Assembly: GCA_037441705.1 (NCBI GenBank)
Contig: JBBIRR010000001.1
Location: forward strand, 226,447 to 290,446
Direction of reading: 5' to 3'
DNA: 64,000 bases
Origin: Ignavibacteriales bacterium
GTDB lineage: Bacteria > Bacteroidota > Ignavibacteria > UBA10030 > UBA6906
Every line of letters starts with the position of its first letter. Within the stretch, counting starts at the first letter, position 1. Shown piece after piece: positions 1-61,918 of the stretch. The position numbers were made by a program, and so were the translations under genes. A model generated the notes under the pieces. It was not told where the DNA came from. It saw nothing but the letters and a program-made list of their open reading frames with translations, and ran no database searches.

Positions 1-1853
1 AGCAGCTCAAAGAGATTCACCAGCGCGTCGACCGGATGATGAAGGAGAAGGCCGATCTCTTCTGGAACGACCTCCATCCAAAACTCGCAGCAAGCGGCAT
101 ACACCTTCTCACCATGAAGGAGTGCACGTCCGAGGAACGCGCCCGTCTGACAGAGTTTTTTGCAAAGGAAATCTTTCCCGTCCTCACGCCGCTGGCGTTC
201 GACCCCGGCCATCCGTTCCCGTATATCTCGAACCTGAGTTTGAGTCTCGCCGTTGTGGTGCGCAGCCCGAAGGGTGAGGAACGTTTTGCGCGCGTGAAGG
301 TGCCCGATGTGCTGCCGCGCCTTGTGGCGATTCCGGGCAGCGACGCGGGGACGTTCCGCTTCGTCTGGCTGGAAGAGTTGATTCGTGAGAACCTCGGCAT
401 GCTGTTCCCCGGCATGGCGGTGACGGAATCGTATGCGTTTCAGGTAACGCGCAACGCGGACATCGAGATTCAGGAAGATGAAGCCGAGGACCTCATCCGC
501 TCGATCGAAGAGTCCATCAAGATGCGGCGGTTCGGTTCCGTGGTACGCCTGCTCGTGGAAAATACCATGCCGCAACGGATTATTGACGTCCTCGCGGAGA
601 ATCTCGAGATCACACCGGACGACGTGTACCACTTTCGTCCACCGCTCGGTCTCAGTCATCTCATGCAGCTGCTGAAACTGCCGCGCCCCGACTTGAAGGA
701 CCCACCGTATCACCCTGCAATGCTCTTCAGCGACGACGAGGGCGAGGATATCTTCGGTCTCATCAGGCGAGGCGACATCGTGTTGCATCATCCGTACGAC
801 TCGTTCGCTCCGATCGTCCAATTCATCAAAGCCGCCGCGCACGACCCGAATGTTCTTGCCATCAAACAGACACTCTACCGTATCGGAAAAGAATCGCCTC
901 TGGTTCCGCTTCTGATTCAGGCTGCCGAAAGCGGCAAGCAGGTCGCCGTGTTGGTGGAGTTGAAAGCCCGCTTCGACGAAGAGAACAACATCGGCTGGGC
1001 AAAGAAATTAGAACGCGCCGGCATTCATGTCGTCTACGGATTGGTGGGATTGAAAACGCATGCGAAGGTCGCTCTCGTTGTTCGGAAGGAAGCAGACGGC
1101 CTGCGGCGCTACGTGCATCTCGGCACCGGCAACTACAATCCGGATACCGCACGCATCTATACCGACATCAGCTACCTGACCTGCAAGGAAGATATCGCCG
1201 CCGATGCTTCGGAGGTGTTCAACTTCCTCACGGGGTTCTCCAACAAGCAGGAGTTTCAGAAACTGGTCGTCGCGCCGCTGAACCTGCGCACGCGCCTCAC
1301 GCAGCTCATCGAGCGGGAAATTCAACACGCCCGCAGCGGCAAGCCCGCACACATCATGCTCAAGATGAATGCCCTCACCGACATCAAAATGATCGAGATG
1401 CTCTACGAAGCGTCGAAAGCGAAAGTCAAGATCGACATGATCGTCCGGGGAATCTGCTCTCTGCGGCCCGGCGTCAAGGGCGTGAGCGAGAACATTCGCG
1501 TGATCAGTATTGTGGGGAGATTTCTCGAACACAGCCGCGTGTTCTATTTCTCGAACGATGGCCGGCCGGAACTCTACTGCAGCAGCGCCGACCTGATGGG
1601 TCGCAATCTTGACCGACGCGTGGAACTGATGTTCCCGATTGAAGACCCGGTGTGGGCCGCATTCGTCAAACGCGAGACGCTTGATGCAGCATGGGAAGAC
1701 ACGGTGGGCGCGCGAATGCTTACCGCCAACGGCACATACGCGCGTGTGCAGCCTGCAAACGGCAGAGAGCCATTTGAGATGCAGGCGTTCCTCATGCACA
1801 CGCGCCTGAAACAAGAACCGAAGAAAGCAGTGCCGCGTGAAGTGCCCGGGTAG
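1..1853 (+). CDS. ppk: Polyphosphate kinase 1 (PPK1), 5' end truncated by the window edge
   Basis: The reading frame is open from position 3, so the start lies upstream of the window. The 605 aa fragment shows PPK1 hallmarks, including the PLD-like C1/C2 region (HAKVALVVR...YVHLGTGNYN). Its length is consistent with a ~700 aa PPK1 missing its N-terminus. Confidence 0.85.
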   Translation, partial: QLKEIHQRVDRMMKEKADLFWNDLHPKLAASGIHLLTMKECTSEERARLTEFFAKEIFPVLTPLAFDPGHPFPYISNLSLSLAVVVRSPKGEERFARVKVPDVLPRLVAIPGSDAGTFRFVWLEELIRENLGMLFPGMAVTESYAFQVTRNADIEIQEDEAEDLIRSIEESIKMRRFGSVVRLLVENTMPQRIIDVLAENLEITPDDVYHFRPPLGLSHLMQLLKLPRPDLKDPPYHPAMLFSDDEGEDIFGLIRRGDIVLHHPYDSFAPIVQFIKAAAHDPNVLAIKQTLYRIGKESPLVPLLIQAAESGKQVAVLVELKARFDEENNIGWAKKLERAGIHVVYGLVGLKTHAKVALVVRKEADGLRRYVHLGTGNYNPDTARIYTDISYLTCKEDIAADASEVFNFLTGFSNKQEFQKLVVAPLNLRTRLTQLIEREIQHARSGKPAHIMLKMNALTDIKMIEMLYEASKAKVKIDMIVRGICSLRPGVKGVSENIRVISIVGRFLEHSRVFYFSNDGRPELYCSSADLMGRNLDRRVELMFPIEDPVWAAFVKRETLDAAWEDTVGARMLTANGTYARVQPANGREPFEMQAFLMHTRLKQEPKKAVPREVPG

Positions 1854-2322: not shown

Positions 2323-4782
2323 TCAGCGCAGCAGAACCATTTTTCTTGTCTCCGAAAAACTGCCGGACTGAACTCGGTAGAGGTACACACCCGTCGCCAG
2401 CGTACCGCCCATCGCATTCTTTGCGTCAAACACGATTTCGTACTTTCCCGCTGTCTTCCACTCGTCAACAAGCGTCGCCACCTCCTGACCCGTAATGTTG
2501 TACACCTTCAGTGTCACACGACCGTCCGCGGGAATGGCGTAGCGAATCGTCGTGGAAGGGTTGAACGGATTGGGATAGTTCTGCTCGAGCATGTACTTCG
2601 TCGGGATGGTAGCAAGGGGTTGCGGATTGAACCCAACGCCGACCTCCTTGATCCACAGTTGCGTGACGATGGCCGAGCCTTCGCCAAGACTGTTGATCGC
2701 GATGGTCACGTCCCCATTGGCATGTACCTCTTGGGGGAGACGGCGAAAGCCTGTTGCTGCGGGTGTTGGACCAACGGTCATCGGCTCGCCAAGGCGGACA
2801 CCGTTGGCGGTCAATTCTTGAAGCCGCCGCACGCCGTCTCCTGCGGCGAACTCTGCGGCAACTTCGTACTCGCCGGTCGGCTTCAGTCTCGTGAAGCGAT
2901 ACTGCACCGACGATGCGTGCTCGTTCGCTGTCTGCGATGGAGTGTTGCCCCATCGGACAGCGCTTCCCTGAACGAGATGGGCATCGTCCGTCCGGTGCTC
3001 GCTGCCGCAATCTTCGTGGTAATACAACGGCAGCGTGAAGCGGGTGTTGGAAAACAGAGGCTCGCCGCTGTAGGCAGAGGCCGCCCCGAGTTCGTAGCGG
3101 TAGGTGCCGGCGGACACCTGCGTACCGTCGTCGCCCCGTCGATCCCATAGCAGGCGCTTCTCTCCGGCATTCATCCACGACGAGGTCAGGGTGCGGACGA
3201 GCCTATTCTGTTCATCGTAAATCCGGGCTGTTACGCTGGCAACATCGGTCAGCACGAAGCGGCATGCGACCGTGCTGACATCGGCATCGGCCTGGAACTC
3301 GATCGCCTTCATTTTCACGCCGAGCTTTCTTCGCTGCGCCCCGCTCGCGTCGTCCCACCGCTCCACCGCAAACACCTGATCGAACCCGGTCCAGTAGTTT
3401 CCCTCTCCCTCAATCACAACCTTCGCAAACGGAATGTCGATATGACCGAGTCCCGCGTACGTCTCGTCTCCACCTTCGATGTCCAACAGATCGAGCGTCG
3501 GCGTGAACTTCAGAATCTGCGACCTCACACTTTCAACCACATAGACCTGCCCGAAGTGATCCGTCTTGAGTGACGTGAAGTACTGACGGAAATTGCCCCG
3601 GTACTCACGAACAAGCGTGAGGGACGTTCCTTCGTCGGCAAAGACACGGATGCGGTTTGCAAGCTTATCCACGACGTAGAGCAGCGCATTGTTCGCGCCG
3701 TTCCATCGGCCGACCGCGATGGAGCTTGGTGTTGAGAAGCCTTCAAAACTTGCCACAAGGGAATTGCGCAGCGTACCGGCCGTGTATTTGAGAATCTTGT
3801 TCTCCACACCATCAGCCACATAGAGAAGATCATCCTGCGTATCGAAGGGCGTACCGTTATCATTGATAGCGAGGTCGGTCGGGTTCGTCACGGTATAGAT
3901 CTGATGACGATGCTGCAGCTCGATGTTATCGCCCGTGCCGACCAACTTCAGGACGACGATGCGTTTGTTTGCCGGCTGTCCGACGAACACGTTTCCGTCA
4001 GCATCAACCGCGATGCATGAAGGTCCTTGAAGAGGATAGGCTTTGATCCAGCGATCCATGTTTCCGTAGAGGATGCGGTCCCATTCGGGATCGAGAACAA
4101 GTTGAATGTAGGTTGCCGAGATCAGCCTGCGCCCGCTTGCATAGCGAAGGGAGATGAACGAGGCGGTGTGTTCGGGCAAGCCGAACAGGACACGATCGAG
4201 ACGCGAGCGTGCAATGCGCTCCGTCAGCCGTCCGATGCCGTGTTCGCGGCTCACAGCGACCGGAATGAACGTTTCGCCGACGGAGACGCCACCGCCGACA
4301 GTTTGAGGCGAGGGCGCGCCGGTGACGGCAGCCGTGCTCCATTCGGCGGGGAGAGAGCCGCCGGCAATCGTCCAGCGCCCTCCTACCTTTTCGAAGAGGA
4401 GTCGCTCGCCCGAGGCAAACTCAGCCGATGCCGCGCTCCCCTGAACCCTTACGCGGCATCGTTGAAAATCGGCGGCAGGCAATGCCGTTGCCGGTGCGTG
4501 CGCTCCTGTGGACAACGCATCACCTGCCTGCCTGCTCAGCACGGCCTGGACGTGCTGAGGATCTGCAAAGAAGAAGGGCACGTGTTTTCGCTCGACCGCA
4601 CTCGTGCCACCACCATTGGCCCGCAGCTTATCCACGATAAGCTGAATCTCCGCCTCATCGGAAACACGTGCCCAGTGTGCCCCCAACCGCTCCGGCGTGC
4701 TCGGCTCGCCCCCGCGAATTGTGCTGCACACACTCACGCTCATCACCATCACCGCACACAACTGTGTCGTCTTCATACTCAT
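2323..4782 (-). CDS. Secreted NHL-repeat beta-propeller protein with T9SS C-terminal sorting domain
   Basis: N-terminal signal peptide. Repeated NHL-like blades (NVFVGQPANKRIVVL, LLYVADGVENKILKY, LLYVVDKLANRIRVF, QVYVVESVRSQILKF). The C-terminus carries the canonical Por_Secre_tail (LEQNYPNPFNPSTTIRYAIP...GVYLYRVQSGSFSETRKMVLLR). Confidence 0.75.
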   Translation of the reverse strand: MSMKTTQLCAVMVMSVSVCSTIRGGEPSTPERLGAHWARVSDEAEIQLIVDKLRANGGGTSAVERKHVPFFFADPQHVQAVLSRQAGDALSTGAHAPATALPAADFQRCRVRVQGSAASAEFASGERLLFEKVGGRWTIAGGSLPAEWSTAAVTGAPSPQTVGGGVSVGETFIPVAVSREHGIGRLTERIARSRLDRVLFGLPEHTASFISLRYASGRRLISATYIQLVLDPEWDRILYGNMDRWIKAYPLQGPSCIAVDADGNVFVGQPANKRIVVLKLVGTGDNIELQHRHQIYTVTNPTDLAINDNGTPFDTQDDLLYVADGVENKILKYTAGTLRNSLVASFEGFSTPSSIAVGRWNGANNALLYVVDKLANRIRVFADEGTSLTLVREYRGNFRQYFTSLKTDHFGQVYVVESVRSQILKFTPTLDLLDIEGGDETYAGLGHIDIPFAKVVIEGEGNYWTGFDQVFAVERWDDASGAQRRKLGVKMKAIEFQADADVSTVACRFVLTDVASVTARIYDEQNRLVRTLTSSWMNAGEKRLLWDRRGDDGTQVSAGTYRYELGAASAYSGEPLFSNTRFTLPLYYHEDCGSEHRTDDAHLVQGSAVRWGNTPSQTANEHASSVQYRFTRLKPTGEYEVAAEFAAGDGVRRLQELTANGVRLGEPMTVGPTPAATGFRRLPQEVHANGDVTIAINSLGEGSAIVTQLWIKEVGVGFNPQPLATIPTKYMLEQNYPNPFNPSTTIRYAIPADGRVTLKVYNITGQEVATLVDEWKTAGKYEIVFDAKNAMGGTLATGVYLYRVQSGSFSETRKMVLLR

Positions 4783-4790
4783 CTCCCCGA

Positions 4791-5954
4791 TTAGATCGAA
4801 AACTTGATGGATGCCTGTATGATGTTCGCCGAGAAATCCAGATTGTTGAAGTAGCGGAAATACATCACCTCGACCGCTGAACCGTGCAGGAACTCGAAAT
4901 CGGGATTCTCCTTCGCGACGCCGCGCAGCAGGTACGTAAGCGTGAAGCCAAAATTGTTGGATGAGAAAGGCTTCAGCTTATAGTCGGACGTGCGCAAGGC
5001 CGTCGCAAGATCCTGGATGCCCGCATAGCGGTCGCGGTAGAACGATGCCGCCGTTTGTGCATAGTACCGGTAGTCCACCCCGAAAATGAGATCCTGCAGT
5101 ACGTATTTGTTGAACTTGATCTCGCCGGTGTGCGAACGCACATTCCACGAATCAAAGTAATACCGGTAGCTGCCGATGAGCGAAGCTTTGATCGGCACGA
5201 TGAACTGGCTGAGCCTGAGCGCGCCCGCGTGCCGTGTGCGCGACCGGGGATGCTGCTCATCCACCAAGGTGGAAACACCGGCCGCATCGTAGATGCGGAC
5301 CTGACGGTAGGGATCGCTCAGAAAGCCTTTGTGCAGCACGAAATCGTAGCTGAAATCCAGGACGGTATTGGCCGAAAGAATCTGGCTGAGACTCAAGGAG
5401 CCGGTGTAGGTCTTCTTGCGCTGGTTCAGCAGATCGCCGCTCTCCAGAATCTTGCCCACGAAATCGGCGTTGTACTGGCCGCGCAGCGTGAGTGTTGTGT
5501 TCTTCTCATTCAGTTCCTGACTGTACGTGACGACGACTGCGTTCGAGCGATAGTCCACTTCCTGGCTTCTATAGTAATTCACGGCAAAGGTAGCGTTGGC
5601 GCCGATGTCTTGCTGAAGTCCGAGAATAATCTGTCCGCGATTTTTTTCGAACGGCTCGCTTGCGCGACGCTGCGGCCGCGTCGCACCCGTCACGGCAGTC
5701 ACCGGCGGTACCGTCACCTGATCCAGCTCGATATCGAACAACAACAGCGTGCTCTGCAGCAAGCGCTTCGCAAGATTGAAGGACGTCGTAACGACGCTGT
5801 TATCGCCGCTATCGGAGAAGTAATAGGTTGTGAATCCCAGCCCCTCGCCGCCTCCTGCCGCGAACCCGATCGCGGACGGCATGAAGATGGCGAGCAAGAA
5901 CAGGGCAATATGTTTCCGATAGTGTGTCATACACGAGGGCATCGTCGCCATCAT
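4791..5954 (-). CDS. DUF3570-family predicted outer-membrane beta-barrel protein
   Basis: 387 aa with a signal peptide. Amphipathic beta-strand periodicity is rich in Y/F/S/T, and the C-terminal residue is aromatic. It sits immediately downstream of a DUF4266 lipoprotein gene with a 4-bp overlap, which is the conserved DUF4266/DUF3570 pairing. Confidence 0.6.
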   Translation of the reverse strand: MMATMPSCMTHYRKHIALFLLAIFMPSAIGFAAGGGEGLGFTTYYFSDSGDNSVVTTSFNLAKRLLQSTLLLFDIELDQVTVPPVTAVTGATRPQRRASEPFEKNRGQIILGLQQDIGANATFAVNYYRSQEVDYRSNAVVVTYSQELNEKNTTLTLRGQYNADFVGKILESGDLLNQRKKTYTGSLSLSQILSANTVLDFSYDFVLHKGFLSDPYRQVRIYDAAGVSTLVDEQHPRSRTRHAGALRLSQFIVPIKASLIGSYRYYFDSWNVRSHTGEIKFNKYVLQDLIFGVDYRYYAQTAASFYRDRYAGIQDLATALRTSDYKLKPFSSNNFGFTLTYLLRGVAKENPDFEFLHGSAVEVMYFRYFNNLDFSANIIQASIKFSI

Positions 5955-6169
5955 TTTGCACAGCCGCAGCCGCCGCCAATCCCCGCCGCTCCCCCGATGC
6001 TTCCCTCACGCGTGGAGAAGAACTTCTGCTCGAGCGTCTGCTTGGCAAACACATCCGTCCGCTCCATGATCGGGTCACCGAGGTTGGCGCGTTGATACAC
6101 TTTCACGGTTGTACATCCCGCGAGAAAATACAACAGGAGAAGAAGCGCGAAGAGGTGTGTCAGGCGCAT
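5951..6169 (-). CDS. DUF4266-family small lipoprotein
   Basis: 72 aa with lipobox LAGC. A TVKVYQR...DP segment is followed by the characteristic Gly-rich C-terminus ending GGGCGCAK, matching the DUF4266 signature. Confidence 0.7.
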   Translation of the reverse strand: MRLTHLFALLLLLYFLAGCTTVKVYQRANLGDPIMERTDVFAKQTLEQKFFSTREGSIGGAAGIGGGCGCAK

Positions 6170-6178
6170 ACGGTCCTC

Positions 6179-8422
6179 CTATCGGCCGACGGTGTTGGAA
6201 AACTGCGTCCCCATATCCACCCACTCGATGATGGTGAGCAAGTCACGGTTCGCCGGAAGGAACGGATCAATGCGGCCATGTTGATCGCGCGTCCACATCT
6301 GCGTGTGATCGTAGCTCAACGGCCGGTAGTCCCGGTTGCTCGAGTCGTTCAACTGTCGTCCATACAACACCCACAGCAGCGGACTGTGACGCGAGCCGTT
6401 GTGCCCGTGGACGTATTGCATGTCGTTGTTTGTCGCGGTACGATAGCGACCGTTGCGCGTGAGGGTTTCATAGACGGTCGTCGTCATTTCCGTGAACGGA
6501 TTTGGTGGGGGAGTCAAATCCGCCGGTGTGTTTTCCAGACTCAGCCCTCCTGCGGGTGCGGCATTGCTGTGGCAGGTGATGCACCGGCGATCGAACACAT
6601 TCTGCACCGTGTTCGTCCTTCCGGTGCGATAGCGATCGAAGAAGTCCAGCGTATCCGTCCGCGCTGCGGGATGCGCCGTCACCAGTTCCGCGTTGTGAAA
6701 GCCGGATTCGTACGTCGTGCCGCGTGCCCGATTGATCACCTGGTTGTTGGAGGCAATCTGCAGATCGTTAATAATCCGATCGCGATCATGAGAGTCGTGG
6801 CAGCCCGTACAGAGCCGCTTCTCGCCCGGTATCACCTGAATCCACGTGAGCTGGCTGACGAGAAGCATACCGTGCTGGTCGAGCGTCTGCACGTGCAGGG
6901 ATCGGTTCGCAGGCACTTCAATGGAAAAGGAACCGTCCGAACGAATCGCCGCATAGCCGATAATGCGCTGCTTTTCCAGATTGATGTTGCCGATGGCCTG
7001 TCCGCGCTTGGATCCATCGCGAGGCATATCCACCGCTTCCAACACACGCAGGTACTTGGCCTGACCGTTCGAGCCATCGGCGTTCGCGAACGTCGGTGAA
7101 GGACGAATCTGCCCGTCGTTGGGCGCGCGATCGTAGACATTGCCGTCGAAGAACATCCCGGTCGTCGCACCGGAGGAAAGTCCTGCGGCAACATTCGGGT
7201 CCATGGGAATGACCAGCGGGACCCCGCCGGGAATTCTTTCGCGCGGTAGCACGGGCACGGGATCAATCTCGTTATAGTCGGGATCGTTGTAGATGAGCCG
7301 GAGATTGCTGCCGTCTTTCTCCATCACGTAGATGCCGTAGTCGACTTCTTCATTCTGGCCGCCTTGACCGCGAGGAATCGGAGACATCGCCACGAGGATT
7401 TTTTCTTTTCGATCTGCAGATGCATTCCTGTCGATGATCGGATGCGGCGTTTTGTAGAACGCGCTGGTCGCGCGGCCCGTGTTATTAAAGACCACGTCAG
7501 GAGGTGTGATGAACGTGAGGTTGTCATCCGATCGTGAAATGTCAATAATGGCGATGGCACCGCCCTCGAAAGGCGAGTTCCGCTCCATCACCGAACAGAC
7601 CAGCCCGCCATCGGAGAGTTCTCGCGCTTCGACAAATGCCCGGTCGCCGCTTTCGCGCGGCGAGTGATTGCCGTACAGAACGAAGGGCCGCGTACCATCG
7701 GGGTTCATCACAAAGAGAGGAAATTTGTTGGGATTGCCGAGATGTTCCCACCGGCCGTAAATGATCTTGCCGCTGGAGTGAATGATCGGGTTGATATCGT
7801 GACTCTGATTGAATGAAATGCGACGAATGTTGACGAGTCGGCCATCTGCCGCGCGATCGGCTACATGCAGCAGCGGCGACTCGCGTCGCTCATATTCGTC
7901 AACGATTCCGGGCCGGGTTGAGGTAAAAACAATTTGCCCGGTCGGCAGATACGCCGGATCCATATCGTCGCCGGTTGAACCCTCGGTCAGTTGCACAAGA
8001 TTCGTCCCGTCGGCATTCATTTCGTAGATGCGCCAGCGACTGTTGCGGTTCACCTTCATCGAGAAGAGAATTCTTCGGCCGTCGTAGGAAACCTCGGGAT
8101 CAGCGCACGCTCCGTAGTTGCGCGGGTCGCTGACGTTGCGCCTCGTGTATTGTGCGGTCAGGTTCGTCAACTTGCCTTGCGGAGAGATGGGGCTGAGCAA
8201 AAACAGATCGCTGCCCGGATAGTACTCGTCAATATTGCTGCGCATGGGTTCGCTGCGGTTGTCTTCGCGGCTGTTCTCTCGAACAAAGACAATCGCCGCC
8301 TGCCCCGAACGGTCAAGAATGTCATCCGGCGGCGACGAACCGCAGGACGCGAAAATCAGAGCCAGACCTCCGGTGCATAAGGCAGCGTTCATCAGCCGCC
8401 CGAGCCACAGAATTGATCTCAT
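6179..8422 (-). CDS. Lipoprotein with TolB-like PD40 beta-propeller and two CxxCH haem-binding motifs (putative dihaem c-type cytochrome)
   Basis: Lipobox IFASCG. PD40-type repeats (YDGRRILFSMK...RIYEMNADGTNLVQLT; FVMNPDGTRP; YVMEKDGSNLRLIY). Two CxxCH motifs (RLCTGCHDSHD and RRCITCHSNAAPAGGLSLENT); the second matches the PSCyt1-like C-x2-CH...GGL-x-L pattern. Confidence 0.6.
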   Translation of the reverse strand: MRSILWLGRLMNAALCTGGLALIFASCGSSPPDDILDRSGQAAIVFVRENSREDNRSEPMRSNIDEYYPGSDLFLLSPISPQGKLTNLTAQYTRRNVSDPRNYGACADPEVSYDGRRILFSMKVNRNSRWRIYEMNADGTNLVQLTEGSTGDDMDPAYLPTGQIVFTSTRPGIVDEYERRESPLLHVADRAADGRLVNIRRISFNQSHDINPIIHSSGKIIYGRWEHLGNPNKFPLFVMNPDGTRPFVLYGNHSPRESGDRAFVEARELSDGGLVCSVMERNSPFEGGAIAIIDISRSDDNLTFITPPDVVFNNTGRATSAFYKTPHPIIDRNASADRKEKILVAMSPIPRGQGGQNEEVDYGIYVMEKDGSNLRLIYNDPDYNEIDPVPVLPRERIPGGVPLVIPMDPNVAAGLSSGATTGMFFDGNVYDRAPNDGQIRPSPTFANADGSNGQAKYLRVLEAVDMPRDGSKRGQAIGNINLEKQRIIGYAAIRSDGSFSIEVPANRSLHVQTLDQHGMLLVSQLTWIQVIPGEKRLCTGCHDSHDRDRIINDLQIASNNQVINRARGTTYESGFHNAELVTAHPAARTDTLDFFDRYRTGRTNTVQNVFDRRCITCHSNAAPAGGLSLENTPADLTPPPNPFTEMTTTVYETLTRNGRYRTATNNDMQYVHGHNGSRHSPLLWVLYGRQLNDSSNRDYRPLSYDHTQMWTRDQHGRIDPFLPANRDLLTIIEWVDMGTQFSNTVGR

Positions 8423-8457: not shown

Positions 8458-9009
8458 TTAGAAATAGAATTGAATGCCGACCGTGAACGCAATGTTGTGT
8501 GAGACAAATGGCTCATCGTTCAGAATCCGCTGTGAGAAGATTTGATCTCGCACATCGTATCGAAAGCCGAACTGATTCCCCCCGAAGGCGCCCTTCAGCG
8601 GAATGCGTTTGCCCAGACCGATCACGCCTGCAAACGTCGACTGCCCTCCCTGGTTGATCCCGGCAACCCCGAGGATCATGAAGGGCACATAGCTGCTGGG
8701 AAACGGATCGAACCCTGCAACAAACTCATACGTGTACAATCGCTCACTCTCAAACAGCTGAGATCGCGTAACGCTCGAGAGAACATTGGAGCGCAAGCTG
8801 CCAAGGCCGAATGTGCCTTCGACAAAAAATTTCCCTCCTGAAACAAAGTAGTTATACCGAGCAGCGTAGTGAGGATTGGTCCCGAAACCGCTTGCCGCGT
8901 ACGCACCCACAGAGAGACTAATGCTGTTGGAATAGGGCATCTGTGCATAGGAAGGAATCGCAGCGACCGTAGTAAGCACAAGCAGCAAGCTCCATGTGTG
9001 TACACGCAT
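8458..9009 (-). CDS. Small outer-membrane beta-barrel protein (OmpW/porin-like)
   Basis: 183 aa with a signal peptide (LLLVLTTVAAIPSYAQ). Alternating hydrophobic beta-strands. C-terminal ...GIQFYF with a terminal Phe. Confidence 0.6.
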   Translation of the reverse strand: MRVHTWSLLLVLTTVAAIPSYAQMPYSNSISLSVGAYAASGFGTNPHYAARYNYFVSGGKFFVEGTFGLGSLRSNVLSSVTRSQLFESERLYTYEFVAGFDPFPSSYVPFMILGVAGINQGGQSTFAGVIGLGKRIPLKGAFGGNQFGFRYDVRDQIFSQRILNDEPFVSHNIAFTVGIQFYF

Positions 9010-9025
9010 GTTACACTCCCGTTGG

Positions 9026-9652
9026 TTACCGAATTATGAACGTTGCACCGAGGCTGATTTCCTGAAACAGGACCAACTCGTCCCGCTCATCGCGCGCATT
9101 GGTAATGTTGGTGATGTACTGTTTTGCTTCGATGCGAATGCCGAGCGTCGGTGTGAAGTAGAACCGCGCGCCTGCGCCGAAATTAAATCCGAGCGTTGAT
9201 ACCGTTTCATTGCCGATTGTCGACGTCGGCACCGTGAGCATCAGGCCGACCCCCGCTGCACCGTACGGAATGAGGCGCGAGCGAGTGGAGAGGTTGAGAA
9301 GAGCATTCACGGAAAGAGGATAGAGATTCGCATACGTGCCGATCACCTGCTCACCTGCCAGCTCAAGGTTGAGAGAGCCATAGTTCATCGAAAGGCGCAG
9401 GCCGAACGTGCCGCTCTTTCCCATGAATCCTGTGTGAGGCGAAATCTCGAACGTGACGCCGTCGTTGAGGTTGATGAAGGACGTCTTGGTTTCCGTGCGC
9501 ACTGAATCGTTCTGTTGCGACGCGGCCCTTTCCGGAGTTGAGGCTACAACGAAAGATAGTAGCAAGAGTGAATAAGTAAATCGGATAAATACGGTATATT
9601 CCTTCTTCAAAGGACGCAATGAGACCGCTCCCGCTTTCCGTCTGAATTTCAT
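9026..9652 (-). CDS. Small outer-membrane beta-barrel protein; start codon uncertain
   Basis: 208 aa with an internal hydrophobic signal segment (YSLLLLSFVVAS) and beta-strand periodicity. The long basic N-terminus suggests the true start may be downstream of the annotated Met. It lies 16 bp upstream of the previous barrel gene. Confidence 0.5.
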   Translation of the reverse strand: MKFRRKAGAVSLRPLKKEYTVFIRFTYSLLLLSFVVASTPERAASQQNDSVRTETKTSFINLNDGVTFEISPHTGFMGKSGTFGLRLSMNYGSLNLELAGEQVIGTYANLYPLSVNALLNLSTRSRLIPYGAAGVGLMLTVPTSTIGNETVSTLGFNFGAGARFYFTPTLGIRIEAKQYITNITNARDERDELVLFQEISLGATFIIR

Positions 9653-10106
9653 TGAAAATCACTCGTTTATGTGCCCAATCCTACAACTCTGTGCTGCACA
9701 ATTTACTCAATTCACTGTACCAATCGTTGAGATACAAATATAAACCAATTTATTCATTTGTCAAGCAAAAATTTTCAGATATGCCTCTTATTACCATTTT
9801 TTAATTGATTGAGTCGCATCACCCGAGACAAGTCAGACGTCATGCATGGCGATCGGAACCATCACCTTCTCGCCCCAGTCCGTTTGCAACGTCGCCATCG
9901 GCAGCATCGTCGGTTGCCATGATGTGGCAAATGGCCAACTCTTGAACCAAAGAGGCATGGTATGCACATGAACACGCCGACTCTGTCGGACAAACAACAC
10001 GCACAGCGAAACACACCTTCAAACAAATCCCCGATCTCAGCCTTGTATCTGTGCAATCTTCTTCATAGGTTAATTCCGAAAGTCTTGTTCTTTTCGGAAC
10101 CCTCGC

Positions 10107-10125
10107 AAGAGAGAAACATCTCTCT
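10107..10125. promoter_or_regulatory. Perfect 7-bp inverted repeat (AGAGAGA-AACA-TCTCTCT) about 100 nt upstream of the gltA start codon
   Basis: Read directly from the sequence, inside a 570-bp AT-rich divergent intergenic region at 9653-10223. Confidence 0.4.
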
Positions 10126-10223
10126 GGACTTTCGACACCCACCTGATGCATGAATCCAGCGAGATCCATCTCTTCTGCAGGAGGGTTTACCTCTACACCA
10201 ACGACACGAAAAGGAGAGAGAAC

Positions 10224-11555
<1,332 letters not shown>

Positions 11556-11611
11556 CACTCTCGCGTGGGCCGTCCCGCTACCCGGCGGAGCGGCCCACAG
11601 GTATCCGCGGC

Positions 11612-13570
11612 ATGAAGCGACGGCACAGCGTGGTCTTGCTTGTTGCAATCTTTTTTGAGGTTGCCTTTGCACAGCATGACCTGCACGAGTTGGCCCGAAC
11701 GGAAGCAGAAGCGTACGCGCGGCGATCACGCGTACGGTTCCACACGCAGGACGAGCGCGGTTTCGACGTCACCTCCTACAAACTCGACCTCAACATCACG
11801 GTTGTCCCCGGCTATCTCCGGGGCGTCGTAACGCTGCACGCTCGCAGCACCACCGCGGGGCTGACGGCGATCTCGCTCGACCTCATGAATTCGATGACGG
11901 TTGATTCCGTGATCTGTGCCGGCGCTGCCGCTCGGTTTATCCAGCACCCCACTACCGTGTTCATTGAACTCAACCGAAGTTACGGTTACGGTGAGATGGT
12001 GGTGCTGGATGTGTATTATCGGGGCGTTCCGACCAGCACGGGCTTCGGAAGTTTTGAATTCGGCTCACACCCGGGAGGTCCGTGGGTTTGGACGCTGAGC
12101 GAGCCGTATGGTGCTCGTGACTGGTGGCCGTGCAATGATCATCCTGCCGATAAGGCTGACTCCGTGGATATGCTGGTTACGTGCAGCAGGGATTTCAAGG
12201 TTGCATCGAACGGACGGCTCATTCGCATCACCAGCAATCCGGACAACACGCATACCTACCATTGGGCCGAACGCTACCCGATAGCAACGTACCTCGTTTT
12301 CCTCTCCTTGACCAACTATGCGGAGTTCACCGACTGGTTTCACTACACTCCGACAGACTCCATGCCCATTGTCAACTACATACTTCCCGAACACCTCGCA
12401 GTTGCGCAAGACAGCTTTCGCGTCGTGAGCGATATGTTGAGGATTTATTCGGAGACGTTCGGGCTGTACCCGTTCATCACGGAAAAATACGGCCACGCGC
12501 AATTCGGCAGAGGCGGAGCGATGGAGCACCAGACGATGACCTCGCTTGTGCGGGCAGCGTTCACCCAATCGGCACTCGCACACGAGCTTGCTCATCAATG
12601 GTTCGGCGATCTGATCACATGCGCAAGCTGGCGTCATCTCTGGCTTAACGAAGGCTTCGCGTCGTACGCTGAGGCGCTCTATTACGAAAAGCAGTATGGA
12701 CGCGAACACTATCGCTCGGCTCTTCGCAGTAGCATGGCCATCGCCAAGGCAGCCCGCGGTTCCGTAATCCGACCGGACACGACCGACATCAGCACTTTGT
12801 TCGATCAGGCGGCAGTCTATGCTAAAGGAGCGGCTGTCCTTCACATGCTGCGCTATGTGCTCGGCGATTCGGCGTTTTTCCGCGCTCTGCAAGCCTACAC
12901 ATCCGATGCACGGTTTCGTTACGGAGTTGCAACGACGGAGGATTTCCAGGGTGTGTGTGAAGCAATTGCGCAGCAGCCGCTTGACTGGTTCTTCCAGCAG
13001 TGGTTGTACGGCGAGAACTACCCGCGGTACACGTACACGTGGAACGCCCTCCCCGACACCGATCGACAATGGCGTGTCGACATCACCATCAAACAAACCA
13101 CCGGCACGTCACGTCCAGCGTTCTTCGTGATGCCGCTCGATGTGAAACTATCAGGTTCGACGCGCGACACGACCGTAACGGTGTTCAACACCTACAACGG
13201 TCAAACCTTCAGCCTTCAACTGGAATTTCCGCCGGAGCGGGTGGAACTTGACCCGGAGGAGCGAATCCTGAGGGATGTACTCCCATCAAACGACGGCGAG
13301 CTTCCAACGTCGTTTCGGCTTCTGCAAAACTATCCGAATCCGTTCAACGAGAGTACGACGATCGCTTACGAGATACCAACGCGAACGCATGTTGTTCTCA
13401 CCGTCTACGACGTTCTCGGGCGCCTTGTGGCAACGCTTGTGAATCGCGTCGAGGAACCGGGACATAAAACCGTTCGCTTCGACGCCGCAGACAACGCAAG
13501 CGGTGTGTACTTGTGCAGGCTGCACGCGGCGGGCTTTGCGGCATCGCGCAAGCTTCTCCTTCTCAAATAG
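11612..13570 (+). CDS. M1-family zinc aminopeptidase with T9SS C-terminal sorting domain
   Basis: GAMEH motif and HELAHQWFG...NEGFASY zinc site. Signal peptide from MKRRHSVVLLVAIFF (ATG 11612). C-terminal LLQNYPNPFNESTTIAYEIP...VYLCRLHAAGFAASRKLLLLK Por_Secre_tail. Confidence 0.85.
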   Translation: MKRRHSVVLLVAIFFEVAFAQHDLHELARTEAEAYARRSRVRFHTQDERGFDVTSYKLDLNITVVPGYLRGVVTLHARSTTAGLTAISLDLMNSMTVDSVICAGAAARFIQHPTTVFIELNRSYGYGEMVVLDVYYRGVPTSTGFGSFEFGSHPGGPWVWTLSEPYGARDWWPCNDHPADKADSVDMLVTCSRDFKVASNGRLIRITSNPDNTHTYHWAERYPIATYLVFLSLTNYAEFTDWFHYTPTDSMPIVNYILPEHLAVAQDSFRVVSDMLRIYSETFGLYPFITEKYGHAQFGRGGAMEHQTMTSLVRAAFTQSALAHELAHQWFGDLITCASWRHLWLNEGFASYAEALYYEKQYGREHYRSALRSSMAIAKAARGSVIRPDTTDISTLFDQAAVYAKGAAVLHMLRYVLGDSAFFRALQAYTSDARFRYGVATTEDFQGVCEAIAQQPLDWFFQQWLYGENYPRYTYTWNALPDTDRQWRVDITIKQTTGTSRPAFFVMPLDVKLSGSTRDTTVTVFNTYNGQTFSLQLEFPPERVELDPEERILRDVLPSNDGELPTSFRLLQNYPNPFNESTTIAYEIPTRTHVVLTVYDVLGRLVATLVNRVEEPGHKTVRFDAADNASGVYLCRLHAAGFAASRKLLLLK

Positions 13571-34464: not shown

Positions 34465-34788
34465 TCATCGCAGCAAACGATCCTGCAGCAGCAGCTCGAT
34501 ATCCCTTCTTCCGTCCAGCACGCAATGGATGTAAACGTGCTTGCGCCCAATCCGGTAGACGATCCGATATGGTCGCGCATCGATCTCCTGAAACTCTGTT
34601 ACGCCAAACGCCAGGAGCTCCGGCGGGACGCGTCCCCGTTGCGGATCGGTTTCGAGCGTGCCTGCCAGCCGTTCGAGTTTTTCGATCAACGCGCTTGCCC
34701 GCGAGAACGATTCACTCTCCGCGACGTGTTTGAAGATGTCGAATAAATCCGCCTGCGCATCATCCGACATCATGACATGATACTTCAT
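34465..34788 (-). CDS. Type II toxin, ParE/RelE family
   Basis: 107 aa with a ParE-like C-terminal region (YRIVYRIGRKHVYIHCVLDGRRD). It overlaps the upstream Phd/YefM gene by 4 bp. Confidence 0.7.
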   Translation of the reverse strand: MKYHVMMSDDAQADLFDIFKHVAESESFSRASALIEKLERLAGTLETDPQRGRVPPELLAFGVTEFQEIDARPYRIVYRIGRKHVYIHCVLDGRRDIELLLQDRLLR

Positions 34789-35072
34789 AGCGAATGCTCA
34801 AAACGCTGCATGCGCTGTTTGAGATGAGCAAACGCCTGCCTGAGAGTCGTAAATCTCCCCTTACGAAAACTCTGGCTGCTTTGCGCCAGGATCTTCAGCA
34901 TCGCCAGTGTTTGCTGCTGCCGTTCGTACACCTTGACATCCTGCACGACAACCCTCGCTTCGCCGTTGTGCGTTACCACCAGGGTCTTCTGATTCTTGAC
35001 GATGTCACGGATCAGCTCCGATGCATGCGCCTTCAGATAACTGATGGGTTTGATGGAGTCGCTGAGTTTCAT
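34785..35072 (-). CDS. Type II antitoxin, Phd/YefM family
   Basis: 95 aa with a Phd/YefM-like N-terminus (ISYLKAHASELIRDIVKNQKTLVVTHNGEARVVVQDVKVYE). Confidence 0.7.
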   Translation of the reverse strand: MKLSDSIKPISYLKAHASELIRDIVKNQKTLVVTHNGEARVVVQDVKVYERQQQTLAMLKILAQSSQSFRKGRFTTLRQAFAHLKQRMQRFEHSL

Positions 35073-51039: not shown

Positions 51040-51837
51040 TCAGCCGACTCCGCCTGCGGCACTACTTTTTTCCTCGATCATTTTCGCGCGCAGGTACTCC
51101 CGGTTCAGGCGGGCGATATGCGCGACGGAGATTTGCTTCGGGCACTCGGCCTCGCACGCGTACGTGTTCGAACAGCTGCCGAATCCCTCCTCGTCCATTT
51201 GCGCAACCATGGCTTCGACGCGCGCTTTGCGCTCGGCGTGTCCTTGCGGCAGCAGCGCAAGATGAGAAACCTTCGCCGCGACGAACAACATCGCCGAGCC
51301 GTTCTTGCACGCCGCGACGCACGCGCCGCAGCCAATGCATGCCGCGGCATCGAACGCCTCATCGGCAATGGGTTTGGGAATGGGGATCGTGTTGGCATCG
51401 GGCGCGCCGCCGGTGCGTACCGAGATGAAGCCGCCCGCCGCCATGATCCGATCGAAGGCGGAACGGTCAACAACGAGATCCTTGATGACGGGAAACGGTT
51501 TGGCGCGCCATGGCTCGACGACAATCGTCTCGCCGTCCTTGAACGATCGCATGTGCAGCTGGCACGCCGTTACGCCGCGCAGCGGGCCGTGTGCCCGTCC
51601 GTTGATGTACAAACTGCATGTGCCGCAGATGCCCTCGCGACAATCGTGGTCGAACGCGATGGCCTCCTCCCCTTTGTGGACAAGCTCAAGGTTCAGGAGA
51701 TCGAGCATCTCCAGAAACGACATGTCGGGCGAAACGTTGGGCATTGTGTAGGTGACAAACTTCCCGGGGGAAGTTCGATCTTTCTGTCTCCAGATTTTCA
51801 GCGTGATCGTCATTGAATGTTCGGCCATGAGATGCAA
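51040..51837 (-). CDS. sdhB: Succinate dehydrogenase/fumarate reductase iron-sulfur subunit
   Basis: 2Fe-2S ([10 protein letters not shown]), 4Fe-4S ([11 protein letters not shown]) and 3Fe-4S ([12 protein letters not shown]) cysteine clusters. Confidence 0.9.
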
Positions 51838-51856
51838 CTCCTTGGGTTCTATGGTG

Positions 51857-53785
51857 TCACTTGTAACTGCGCTGCGTCGGCTTCACGTATTCAAACACCA
51901 GCGGTTCCTTGTGCAGCTTCTCCGGGGTACCGACGCCTTTGAATTCCCATGCAGCGACGTAGGAGAATTTCGCGTCGTTGCGCTTCGCCTCGCCTTCCTC
52001 TGTCTGATATTCTTCGCGGAAGTGGCCGCCGCAGGACTCCTCACGATGCAGCGCGTCCACGCACATCAGTTCGGCAAGCTCCAGAAAGTCCGCAACGCGA
52101 TGGGCCTTCTCCAGTTCCTGGTTGAAGGAATCGGCACTGCCGGGAATGAGAACGTTGCGCCAGAACTCTTCGCGCAGCCGGGGAATTTCCTCCAGAGCCT
52201 CCTTCAAGCCTGCTGCGTTGCGCGCCATGCCGCACTTGTTCCACATGATCTTTCCGAGCTGCTTGTGGATTTCGTCAACCGGTTTTTTCCCACGTACATT
52301 CATCAGCTTCTCGGTCATCGCCGTCAGTTCGCGTTCGGCATCGCGGAACGCCGCGTGGTTCGCGTCCACTTTCGGGAACGTGTTCGACGCAAGATAATCG
52401 CCGATGGTGTACGGAATGATGAAGTAGCCGTCGGCGAGTCCCTGCATCAGTGCGCTGGCGCCGAGCCTGTTGGCACCGTGGTCGGAGAAGTTCGCCTCCC
52501 CGAGAACGAACAATCCGGGGATCGTACTCATCAGATTGTAATCAACCCATAGGCCACCCATCGTGTAATGCACCGCCGGGTAAATGCGCATGGGCTGCTC
52601 GTAGGCATTCTCGCCCGTGATTTGCTGGTACATATCGAACAGATTGCCGTATTTTTCCACCACCCACTGCTTGCCCAGCCGTTTGATCGTATCGGCAAAA
52701 TCCAGATACACGGCCAGACCCGTGGGTCCGACGCCGTGCCCTTTGTCGCACATTTCTTTTGCGCGACGCGACGCGACGTCACGCGGAACAAGATTGCCGA
52801 ACGACGGATACAGCCGCTCGAGGTAGTAATCCCGTTCATTTTCAGGAATATCGTTCGGATGGCGCTTATCGCCCGGCTTCTTCGGCACCCAGATACGGCC
52901 GTCGTTGCGCAGACTTTCACTCATGAGCGTGAGCTTCGACTGATGCTCGCTCGACACCGGAATGCACGTCGGATGAATTTGTGTGAAGCAGGGGTTGCCG
53001 AAGAACGCGCCCCGCTTGTGTGCGCGCCAGGTCGCCGTCGCGTTGCACATCATGGCGTTCGTCGAGAGGAAAAACACATTGCCGTACCCGCCCGTCGCAA
53101 GAATCACCGCGTCGCCGACAAACGATTCGAACTTTCCGTTGATCATATTGCGGGCGATGATGCCGCGCGCCTTCCCATCAATCACCACCAGATCGAGCAT
53201 CTCGCGACGCTCGTAGAACTTCACGTTGCCAAGCCCGATCTGGCGGCACAGGGCGGAGTAGGCTCCGAGCAGCAACTGCTGGCCCGTTTGGCCGCGGGCG
53301 TAAAACGTTCGCGAGACCTGCGCGCCGCCGAACGAGCGGTTGTCCAACAGCCCGCCGTACTCCCGCGCAAACGGCACGCCCTGCGCTACACACTGGTCAA
53401 TAATGTTGTTGCTGACCTGTGCAAGGCGATAGACGTTGGCTTCCCGCGCTCGGTAATCTCCCCCTTTCACCGTGTCGTAGAAGAGCCGCCAGATGCTGTC
53501 GCCATCGTTGGGATAATTTTTCGGAGCGTTGATGCCTCCTTGCGCAGCAATGCTGTGCGCACGCCGCGGGGACTCGTGATAGCAGAGCGCGGTGACGTTG
53601 TAGCCCAACTCGGCAAGCGACGCGGCGGCGGACGATCCGGCCAGCCCCGTCCCCACCACGATGATGTGATACTTCCGCTTGTTCGCCGGATTCACCAGCT
53701 TCAGATTGAACCGATGATTGTCCCACTTCTGCTGGATGGGACCTTCAGGGATTTTCGAATTCAGTGTCATAGCAACTCGTTCCAT
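51857..53785 (-). CDS. sdhA: Succinate dehydrogenase/fumarate reductase flavoprotein subunit
   Basis: FAD-binding [13 protein letters not shown]. Covalent-FAD His region (SIAAQGG) and the catalytic domain. 642 aa, Bacteroides/Bacillus type. Confidence 0.9.
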
Positions 53786-54442
53786 TTAGAATGCAAAAAG
53801 AAAGTAGAGAGGAATGATGGCGAATGCGACGGGAATGATGAGCCAGAACACGACGCCGATGGCATGAATGAGCTTCTGAAATTTCCCGACACGAAGTCCC
53901 AGCGTTTGAAACGCCGACTGGAATCCGTGTTTCAAGTGAAGGGCAAGAAACACCAACGACACCATGTAGAACGCCACGTAGCCCGGCCGAGCAAACGCTT
54001 CCTTGATCAGTTCAATCATGGGGCGATGGTCGAAGAAGCGCGATTGGACAAAGAAGGTATTGACATGGACGACGAGGAAAACGCCGACAAGGATGCCCGT
54101 GAACCAGACAAAACGCGACGTCCACGTGCTATTCTCCCGCGCGCGATTCACTTCGTAGCCAATCGGACGCCTGCGGCGGTTCAGCAGTTCCAAATACAAT
54201 CCCAACACGGCGTGCACCAGGAAGCCGGCAAACAACAGCCACTCCAACGGCCGAATGAGCGGATGGGTTGCCATGAAGTGTGCGTAGGTGTCGAACTCCG
54301 CACCTCCGTCGCTTTTGACCTGCAGCGCAAACAAATTGATTGTAAGATGAAGAACAAGAAAACTACACAGGAACAGCCCCGACAGCGACATCACCACTTT
54401 CCTGCCGACCGATGATTGAAGAAACTTCGCGGTTTTACCCAT
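53786..54442 (-). CDS. sdhC: Succinate dehydrogenase/fumarate reductase cytochrome b subunit
   Basis: Five-TM dihaem b-type anchor of the Bacteroides frdC type, with His ligands in TM helices. Contiguous with sdhA. Confidence 0.75.
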   Translation of the reverse strand: MGKTAKFLQSSVGRKVVMSLSGLFLCSFLVLHLTINLFALQVKSDGGAEFDTYAHFMATHPLIRPLEWLLFAGFLVHAVLGLYLELLNRRRRPIGYEVNRARENSTWTSRFVWFTGILVGVFLVVHVNTFFVQSRFFDHRPMIELIKEAFARPGYVAFYMVSLVFLALHLKHGFQSAFQTLGLRVGKFQKLIHAIGVVFWLIIPVAFAIIPLYFLFAF

Positions 54443-61672: not shown

Positions 61673-61918
61673 GGAGCGAAGTCCGCAGTAAGCCTTCCAC
61701 CGCTCCACGTAGAAACGCCGCCCCGTTTTTCTTCCGCCGACACACTCGCGCATGCGGAACGCATGAAGCATGTGCCGTCCGCGCTACGCGAATTCCTTCC
61801 ACAATGTGTCACACACACAGAATCTGTCGGGTGGCATAGGTGTTGCCGTTCCCCTTTTTCCCGCGATGCATCAGCGCGCGGGCAATCCACATCTTACAAC
61901 CAATCAACGGGAGGGTGT

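Follow-up and report, generated by a model that had tools for sequence, protein, structure and literature searches.

A hydrazine synthase alpha-like dihaem lipoprotein and its conserved linkage to a DUF3570/DUF4266 outer-membrane module in an Ignavibacteriales bacterium

We analysed a 64,000-nucleotide stretch of DNA from an Ignavibacteriales bacterium (GenBank assembly GCA_037441705.1, contig JBBIRR010000001.1, positions 226,447 to 290,446), here called the window, and in it a minus-strand gene at 6179..8422 whose product a first-pass annotation had described as a lipoprotein that fuses a TolB-like PD40 beta-propeller to two cytochrome c motifs. The product is related, distantly but over its full length, to the alpha subunit of hydrazine synthase (HZS) and shares its three-domain layout. 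Its gene lies third in a compact operon of six, and the HZS-alpha-like lipoprotein is co-inherited with a barrel that carries a flavinylation motif (DUF3570), a lipoprotein ending in a Cys-x-Cys (CXC) motif (DUF4266) and two small barrels. This conserved partnership of the cytochrome with the DUF3570/DUF4266 flavinylated outer-membrane module appears to be the new part. As to function, we give about an even chance to the reading in which the cytochrome is the outer-membrane-anchored haem component of a conserved flavin/thiol redox module encoded by one operon.

A single intact open reading frame (ORF) spans exactly 6179-8422, from ATG to stop, and encodes 747 amino acids (aa); an identical 747-aa protein is also called in an independent public assembly. 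The first-pass annotation had placed one gene at just these coordinates and left its strand, which is minus, unstated. The N-terminus, MRSILWLGRLMNAALCTGGLALIFASC, is a signal peptide with a lipobox-like A-S-C27 end (aa 1-27, last residue Cys27; 8342..8422, minus strand). The family's lipobox reads L-x-S-C-G in consensus; of 112 homologues 111 have Cys27 and the remaining one has a gap there, which bears out the lipoprotein claim. There are eight cysteines in the whole protein, four of them in the haem motifs CTGCH and CITCH. The sequence predicts a lipoprotein-type precursor that combines a propeller with two conserved haem c sites.

Three domains follow the signal peptide: a PD40-type beta-propeller (about aa 43-400; 7223..8296, minus strand), delimited from the strand pattern of the model described below, a PD40 hit and matches to TolB propellers; an HZS_alpha middle domain (aa 453-543; 6794..7066, minus strand) with the haem I motif at its end; and a cytochrome c-like C-terminal domain (about aa 596-747; 6182..6637, minus strand), aligned to residues 647-769 of 5c2v_A, that carries haem II. 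The middle domain was found by Pfam PF18582 (hydrazine synthase alpha subunit middle domain) at E 3e-20 and 73 bits against a cutoff of 26.6, the whole profile being covered (1-98 of 98) and the match ending exactly at the first CxxCH. One PD40 repeat scored above threshold (27.2 bits against 20.9), so the propeller holds up in profile searches. The propeller fold is TolB-like, as had been proposed, but the protein does not belong to the TolB family, whose TIGR02800 model reaches only 43.9 bits against a cutoff of 343, and in the propeller region only. PSCyt1, Cytochrome_CBB3 and other haem families gave only sub-threshold matches in the Pfam scan of the 747-aa protein; the "PSCyt1 type" given to the second haem motif has to be dropped, PSCyt1 (PF07635) scoring 17.9 bits against a gathering cutoff of 22 over 23 residues around CITCH.

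By sequence, HZS-alpha of Kuenenia (5c2v chain A) is the only relative with a solved structure; it was found at E 1e-15 with the single sequence and at E 1.1e-30 with a 72-sequence family profile, whose alignment has stretches in all three domains. An AlphaFold2 model made from the family alignment (pLDDT 89.2, pTM 0.87) was searched against PDB chains with Foldseek; the best match was again 5c2v, over the full length (E 7.7e-34, TM 0.66/0.64, about 18% identity), and the runners-up were TolB and peptidase propellers that matched the propeller part only (E 1e-10 to 1e-11). The six-bladed propeller, the haem I middle domain and the haem II C-terminal domain of HZS-alpha were all matched, the blade number being read roughly from the strand pattern. 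Published accounts give HZS-alpha a propeller, then haem alpha-I in a middle domain, and last a bis-His haem alpha-II in a class-I-like cytochrome c domain (PMC12607021, PMC12758564). Since this is the layout found here, the propeller-cytochrome is not a new fusion. The first-pass annotation had called the architecture unusual and had overlooked the full-length homology; the architecture is already known from HZS-alpha and common to a very large uncharacterised superfamily, that of Pfam PF18582 HZS_alpha, of which the window protein is a member.

The size of that superfamily is shown by a search of 50%-identity cluster representatives with the family profile, which returned 29,691 proteins at E<=1e-3 and 1,020 at E<=1e-30. 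The best 150 representatives listed are mostly of 800-1000 aa and have the propeller and middle domain in common. Nearly all full-length members listed have PGExRxCxGCH, in which the haem His is usually followed, three positions on, by Arg or His; the window protein has PGEKRLCTGCH. More than 600 structural hits have been reported, none with a confirmed function (Hagglund et al. 2025, PMC12758564).

Both haem motifs could be followed through the closer relatives. The haem I motif, C538-T-G-C541-H542 (6797..6811, minus strand), is followed by D-S-H545-D-R-D548, and the haem II motif, C614-I-T-C617-H618 (6569-6583, minus strand), lies within the C-terminal domain; they are 76 residues apart, not 95 as first annotated. 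The composition of the protein predicts 0.002 CxxCH motifs where two are observed, and both motifs, together with His227, His510 and His706, are invariant in 112 full-length homologues at 48-89% identity. On these two grounds we take the motifs to be real and under selection; lack of conservation in orthologues was among the outcomes that the first annotation had named as a refutation. Haem I is most simply, and probably, ligated in the canonical way by His542, because no Tyr is on hand. For haem II we propose ligation by His618 and His706 (6305-6307, minus strand), because no other His or Met after CITCH is invariant and His706 is kept in several far more distant relatives.

A second conserved feature is a set of polar residues in the propeller (D175-E176-Y177, N205-Q206-S207, W225-x-H227, Y250-G-N-H253 and others), which lie outside the PD40 repeat signature. 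H227, H253 and H706 are kept in most of the divergent superfamily members sampled. Alignment to 5c2v_A puts His253 at the position of Cys303, a zinc ligand in HZS, and in two gammaproteobacterial homologues His227, His253 and the basic residue 545 have all been replaced together; these two observations suggest that the polar cluster may form one functional site beside haem I, which would hold a metal or a substrate. We had also considered the covariation of His253/His545 with Asp253/Arg545 (101 and 11 sequences, respectively) as evidence of contact, and downgraded it because it reflects a single clade event and wider relatives pair His253 with Arg545.

The operon that contains the cytochrome gene runs on the minus strand, with intergenic gaps of 16, 35, 9, -4 and 8 bp. 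Its first gene (9026..9652) encodes a small outer-membrane beta-barrel of 208 aa, the start of which may be at 9619 (Pfam OMP_b-brl, E 5.6e-10). The second (8458..9009) encodes another such barrel of 183 aa, with the C-terminus GIQFYF; its match to TIGR04565 OMP_myx_plus (E 5.7e-10) is below threshold, and its phmmer match in one related locus (L072) is OMP_b-brl by Pfam. After the cytochrome gene comes that of a 72-aa DUF4266 lipoprotein (5951..6169; Pfam and gene call), which has an LAGC lipobox and the C-terminus GGCGCAK, and then that of a 387-aa DUF3570 protein (4791..5954; Pfam DUF3570, E 1.6e-38). The sixth and last gene (2323..4782) encodes an 819-aa surface protein sorted by the type IX secretion system (T9SS), which has NHL-type repeats, FlgD_ig domains and a Por_Secre_tail. 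Upstream of the first gene, a sigma-70-like promoter match of 11/12 positions (TTGACA-16-TATATT) lies at 9737..9764 on the minus strand; it is a match to that consensus, Bacteroidota-type promoters being outside the scan.

The DUF3570 protein is predicted to be an outer-membrane barrel. Its AlphaFold2 model (pLDDT 87.9) has about 18 long antiparallel strands, and all 50 Foldseek matches listed are outer-membrane barrels (among them OprD/Occ, TonB-dependent receptors and OmpG). Its sequence contains an ApbE-type flavinylation motif, T89-G-A-T92 (5679-5690, minus strand), which in the model falls in a long low-confidence loop between strands 3 and 4. The window protein has one such [S/T]GA[S/T] motif, against the two conserved motifs reported for the family (PMC8238504).

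The linkage was evaluated in relatives taken from a one-genome-per-species collection and from metagenomes, all of them metagenome-assembled genomes (MAGs), labelled Calditrichota, Ignavibacteria/"Chlorobi"/Bacteroidota or Fibrobacterota; neighbours were counted over the related loci with enough flank, and about 50 loci from these groups show the linkage. Small barrels of the 183-aa type and of the 208-aa type are present in 58/58 and 55/55 loci, DUF4266 adjoins the cytochrome in 52/53, and DUF3570 is present in 48/49. A thioredoxin that is ResA/DsbE/TlpA-like is present in 32 of 49 loci. In 29 of 42 loci the gene after DUF3570 encodes a relative of the T9SS protein; the loci labelled Fibrobacterota or Gammaproteobacteria yielded no such relative. 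Two sequence motifs are kept as well: the flavinylation motif in 51 of 55 cluster DUF3570 proteins, and at the end of DUF4266 the sequence GGCGC plus one or two residues in all 54 complete proteins, these residues being (A/S/T)K in loci of the Fibrobacteres-Chlorobi-Bacteroidetes (FCB) group and N in three gammaproteobacterial ones.

The linkage also reaches beyond the close family. The same module stands beside gammaproteobacterial homologues of 895-984 aa and 28-32% identity, beside an 844-aa superfamily member, and beside a 973-aa superfamily member with three CxxCH (P0136), where ApbE is encoded immediately upstream. A 638-aa superfamily member has the thioredoxin and DUF4266 only. So tight a linkage across phyla suggests that the HZS-alpha-like cytochrome and DUF3570/DUF4266 work together at the outer membrane.

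Some further features of the related loci may be recorded here. In the proteobacterial-type modules (L071, L072, L078, L079, L083) large conserved TPR proteins come after DUF3570, of 626-629 aa in L072, L078, L079 and L083, and one of the small barrels has an N-terminal SH3 domain. On a Calditrichales chromosome (OZ254086.1; L002 1435-3243) a 602-aa protein with five CxxCH, weak Cytochrome_C554/C7 hits and a T9SS tail is encoded about 7 kb upstream of the HZS-alpha-like operon; these features would make it a multihaem cytochrome that leaves the cell through the T9SS. In a Bacteroidota MAG (L065 7031-9094) an ORF that runs off the contig end about 6 kb downstream of the operon has 26 CxxCH in 687 aa.

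Part of this gene set has been described before. DUF3570 is flavinylated by the flavin transferase ApbE at [S/T]GA[S/T] motifs, as shown experimentally for the Chlorobium luteolum protein only. Its gene neighbours are DUF4266, a thioredoxin-like protein, ApbE and, in many cases, DsbD, a set described as an extracytosolic electron-transfer system whose function is unknown (Meheust et al. 2021, PMC8238504). DUF4266/DUF3570/TlpA neighbourhoods were also noted in Haft's preprint on JDVT-CTERM. Like the published cluster, the window has adjacent genes for a DUF3570 protein with the flavinylation motif and a DUF4266 protein with a C-terminal CXC; the relatives of the window locus add the thioredoxin and one of them ApbE, while neither ApbE nor the thioredoxin nor DsbD was found among the window ORFs scanned. 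The published description, for its part, has neither an HZS-alpha-like cytochrome nor the two small barrels ("hydrazine" occurs 0 times in its text). The association of the cytochrome with DUF3570/DUF4266 is mentioned in neither PMC8238504 nor PMC12758564 (in the latter neither "Calditrich" nor "DUF3570" occurs), and full-text literature searches gave nothing further.

In the reading to which we give even chances, the module would consist of the two small barrels, the cytochrome, the CXC lipoprotein DUF4266, the flavinylated barrel DUF3570 and, in the window lineage, the T9SS surface protein, to which most relatives add the periplasmic ResA/TlpA-like thioredoxin. Reducing equivalents would be exchanged between a thiol/flavin relay, running from the thioredoxin to the Cys-x-Cys of DUF4266 and on to flavin mononucleotide (FMN) on DUF3570, and the cytochrome. 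Haem II, with His618 and His706 as ligands, would be an electron-transfer relay. Haem I, bound through His542, would lie against a conserved polar propeller pocket (D175, E176, Y177, N205, Q206, H227, H253, H545), and here a small substrate or a metal ion would bind and undergo reduction or oxidation. Our leading guesses for the substrate are iron or a small N- or O-species. The latter is suggested by analogy with HZS; iron handling is hinted at by the occurrence of VIT1 in some DUF3570 clusters and by a block of PepSY_TM, TonB-dependent receptor and TonB-ExbBD genes in one lineage. The first-pass annotation had thought of electron transfer at the outer membrane or in the periplasm, and such a role fits the operon, because all neighbours of the cytochrome are predicted outer-membrane or surface proteins, one of them of the ApbE-flavinylated family DUF3570.

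A functional analogy may be drawn with porin-cytochrome conduits of the MtrCAB/PioAB type, in which the genes of an outer-membrane barrel, a lipoprotein c-type cytochrome and a surface protein likewise go together. There is no relation of sequence or fold, the window cytochrome has only two haems, and its barrel would carry a flavin site and does not enclose a multihaem wire.

Several points weigh against the redox-module reading. ApbE, DsbD and thioredoxin genes were not found among the window ORFs scanned, and the thioredoxin has been lost from the operon in the window's own clade. One sampled superfamily member (P0141) is without the module, and the published accounts of DUF3570 clusters mention no such cytochrome (PMC8238504). 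In HZS-alpha, haem alpha-II is reported to lie outside efficient electron-transfer distance of the other haems (PMC12607021), so a simple path from haem II to haem I may not exist in the window protein. His706 does not align with His772 of HZS, which in the pairwise alignment faces Ile718, 12 residues downstream of His706; conservation is what speaks for its candidate role as a ligand. Finally, linkage of genes shows that they share a function, but tells neither which way the electrons flow nor what the substrate is.

An outer-membrane ferric reductase or iron-acquisition device, in which the cytochrome would reduce or handle surface iron with electrons arriving through the FMN of DUF3570, is a special case of the redox-module reading and not a true alternative to it; taken by itself we consider it unlikely. 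VIT1 iron transporters occur in 25 DUF3570 clusters (PMC8238504), the operon abuts the PepSY_TM, TonB-dependent receptor and TonB-ExbBD genes in two related loci (L003/L004), all partners are outer-membrane proteins, and the His/Asp/Glu cluster of the propeller is conserved. The adjacency to iron genes is, on the other hand, confined to one lineage and absent from the window operon, and metal binding is without direct evidence.

We think it rather improbable that the protein is a stand-alone periplasmic enzyme for small nitrogen oxides, which would reduce or detoxify NO or hydroxylamine at a haem I that is five-coordinate and His-ligated, in an activity ancestral to the HZS-alpha fold, and have nothing to do with its neighbours. 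In the sole characterised relative the equivalent haem is where hydroxylamine and ammonium bind (PMC12607021; bioRxiv 10.64898/2026.02.25.707902), and the conservation of the haem I motif and polar pocket would suit such a role. No nitrogen-cycle gene was found nearby in the window or in the sampled loci, however, and independence from the neighbours is hard to square with a linkage to DUF4266/DUF3570 that is close to universal across phyla.

Much the same low probability attaches to a third explanation, that the thioredoxin and DUF4266 serve the maturation of the cytochrome, keeping its CxxCH cysteines reduced as ResA/CcmG do, and do not supply electrons, the real redox partners being elsewhere. 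It draws on the thioredoxin of the relatives, which is ResA/DsbE/TlpA-like; that class includes apocytochrome reductases. The clade of the window, however, is without the thioredoxin and yet keeps DUF4266 and DUF3570, and no part in cytochrome maturation is known for a flavinylated outer-membrane barrel. Clusters of DUF3570, DUF4266, thioredoxin and ApbE are, moreover, described as widespread with no mention of such a cytochrome (PMC8238504).

That the protein is a true HZS alpha subunit or another N-N bond-forming enzyme, so that anammox (anaerobic ammonium oxidation)-like chemistry would occur outside Brocadiia, is hardly credible in spite of the HZS_alpha Pfam domain and the full-length homology and fold match to 5c2v chain A. 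HZS-alpha is defined by Tyr591 proximal to haem alpha-I, His772 distal to haem alpha-II and obligatory beta and gamma subunits, and the His587 of its CxxCH is diverted to a zinc ion that it shares with Cys303 (PMC12607021, PMC12758564). Beta is a propeller and gamma a dihaem CCP/MauG-like protein, and the HZS complex turns NH2OH and NH4+ into N2H4. In our alignment C-S-G-C-H587-Y-G-S-Y591 of HZS pairs with C538-T-G-C-H542-D-S-H545-D546, so that Tyr591 faces Asp546; Cys303 ("IYGNC") pairs with His253 ("LYGNH"), and His772 with Ile718 as stated above. Published alignments have a two-residue gap at Ser590/Tyr591 in non-anammox homologues and report the same residue losses (PMC12758564). The NCBIfam equivalog hydrazine_alpha (NF052339) gives 126.3 bits against a curated cutoff of 800. 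No second CxxCH ORF (of at least 70 aa) was found among the non-overlapping ORFs of the 64-kb window, nor any beta- or gamma-like gene there, and other CxxCH ORFs occur in the flanks of only 7 of 69 related loci, where none recurs, leaving no consistent haem partner. The relatives, too, are labelled Calditrichota, Ignavibacteria/Bacteroidota and Fibrobacterota. Because the score is far below the cutoff, the equivalents of Tyr591 and Cys303 are absent, His772 has no aligned His and no beta/gamma partner was found, we conclude from these comparisons that the window protein is not a hydrazine synthase and would not make hydrazine. Metagenome surveys should accordingly leave the window family out when they use HZS-alpha as a marker of anammox.

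What the window protein shares with HZS-alpha of Kuenenia stuttgartiensis (kuste2861; 5c2v/5c2w chain A) is thus layout and fold, down to a middle domain that ends in the haem I CxxCH. At about 18% identity it differs in having no Tyr591 equivalent, so that haem I is probably His-ligated canonically, in having His253 for Cys303 and no His aligned with His772, in its lipoprotein signal, and in partners that are DUF4266, DUF3570 and small outer-membrane barrels in place of beta and gamma; the hosts of its family are FCB-group bacteria, not anammox Planctomycetota. Closer counterparts are the non-anammox HZS-alpha clades I-IV (Hagglund et al. 2025, PMC12758564) and the "hzs-like" genes of PMC10732223, which like the window protein are uncharacterised HZS_alpha domain-containing cytochromes without Tyr591 and Cys303; they lack His772 too. 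For these homologues a canonical haem pocket is predicted and the TM to HZS-alpha is about 0.66-0.67, similar to that of the window protein. Those clades were chosen for co-location with fused beta-gamma homologues (and FG-GAP/CRTAC1 genes), and occur in Planctomycetota, Desulfobacterota and others (PMC12758564). The window family, in contrast, consists of lipoproteins without a beta-gamma partner; both of its haem sites are retained, and it is linked to the DUF3570 module.

The explanation with as little credit as true hydrazine synthesis, a TolB-like scaffold or peptidase accessory propeller with incidental CxxCH, has the PD40 hit and the TolB-type fold on its side and against it the invariance of both CxxCH down to 48% identity and their retention in far more distant relatives, the weak score of the TolB model (43.9 bits against 343), and the failure to find tol-pal genes or a peptidase domain at the window locus.

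A wider form of the redox-module reading is more tentative, and we hold it to be possible and no better than that: HZS-alpha-like cytochromes would be the unrecognised haem partner, possibly the terminal oxidoreductase, of the ApbE/DUF3570/DUF4266/thioredoxin system, forming with DUF3570 and the two small barrels a flavin-haem machine of the outer membrane, and anammox bacteria would have recruited HZS alpha from an outer-membrane module of this kind. The module does provide a concrete non-anammox context in which to think about the origin of hydrazine synthase. In the 2025 study (PMC12758564) no HZS-alpha homologue has a confirmed function, and the anammox enzyme is the single characterised member of the fold. 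The cross-phylum linkage joins two functionally open families, the HZS-alpha fold and the DUF3570/DUF4266 flavinylated system, into one testable problem, and it supplies candidates for genetics and biochemistry aimed at haem and flavin content, redox partners and substrate.

Other genes of the window are noted briefly. A 629-aa Arg/Val-rich ORF at 9840-11729 (minus strand), beyond the upstream end of the operon, is almost certainly spurious as a gene, as it lies antisense to citrate synthase at 10146-11555 (plus strand; Citrate_synt, E 1.6e-139). C-terminal T9SS sorting domains occur in three proteins of the window, which places the organism in the FCB group: the NHL/FlgD_ig protein of the operon (2323-4782, minus strand) and two others at 11450-13570 and 61763-63835 (both plus strand), which are an M1 peptidase and a CarboxypepD_reg protein. 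Polyphosphate kinase 1 is encoded twice, at 36-1853 (plus strand) and 56615-58672 (minus strand); the ORF listed at 36-1853 is without PP_kinase_N, and its true start may precede the window. A ParE toxin/Phd-YefM antitoxin pair (34465-35072, minus strand) sits inside a run of fatty-acid beta-oxidation genes, between an acyl-CoA ligase gene and a 3-hydroxyacyl-CoA dehydrogenase/enoyl-CoA hydratase gene, after which come thiolase and acyl-CoA dehydrogenase genes. A succinate dehydrogenase/fumarate reductase set lies at 51040-54442 (minus strand); Pfam confirmed its flavoprotein and cytochrome b subunit, and a 265-aa ORF is the presumed iron-sulfur subunit.

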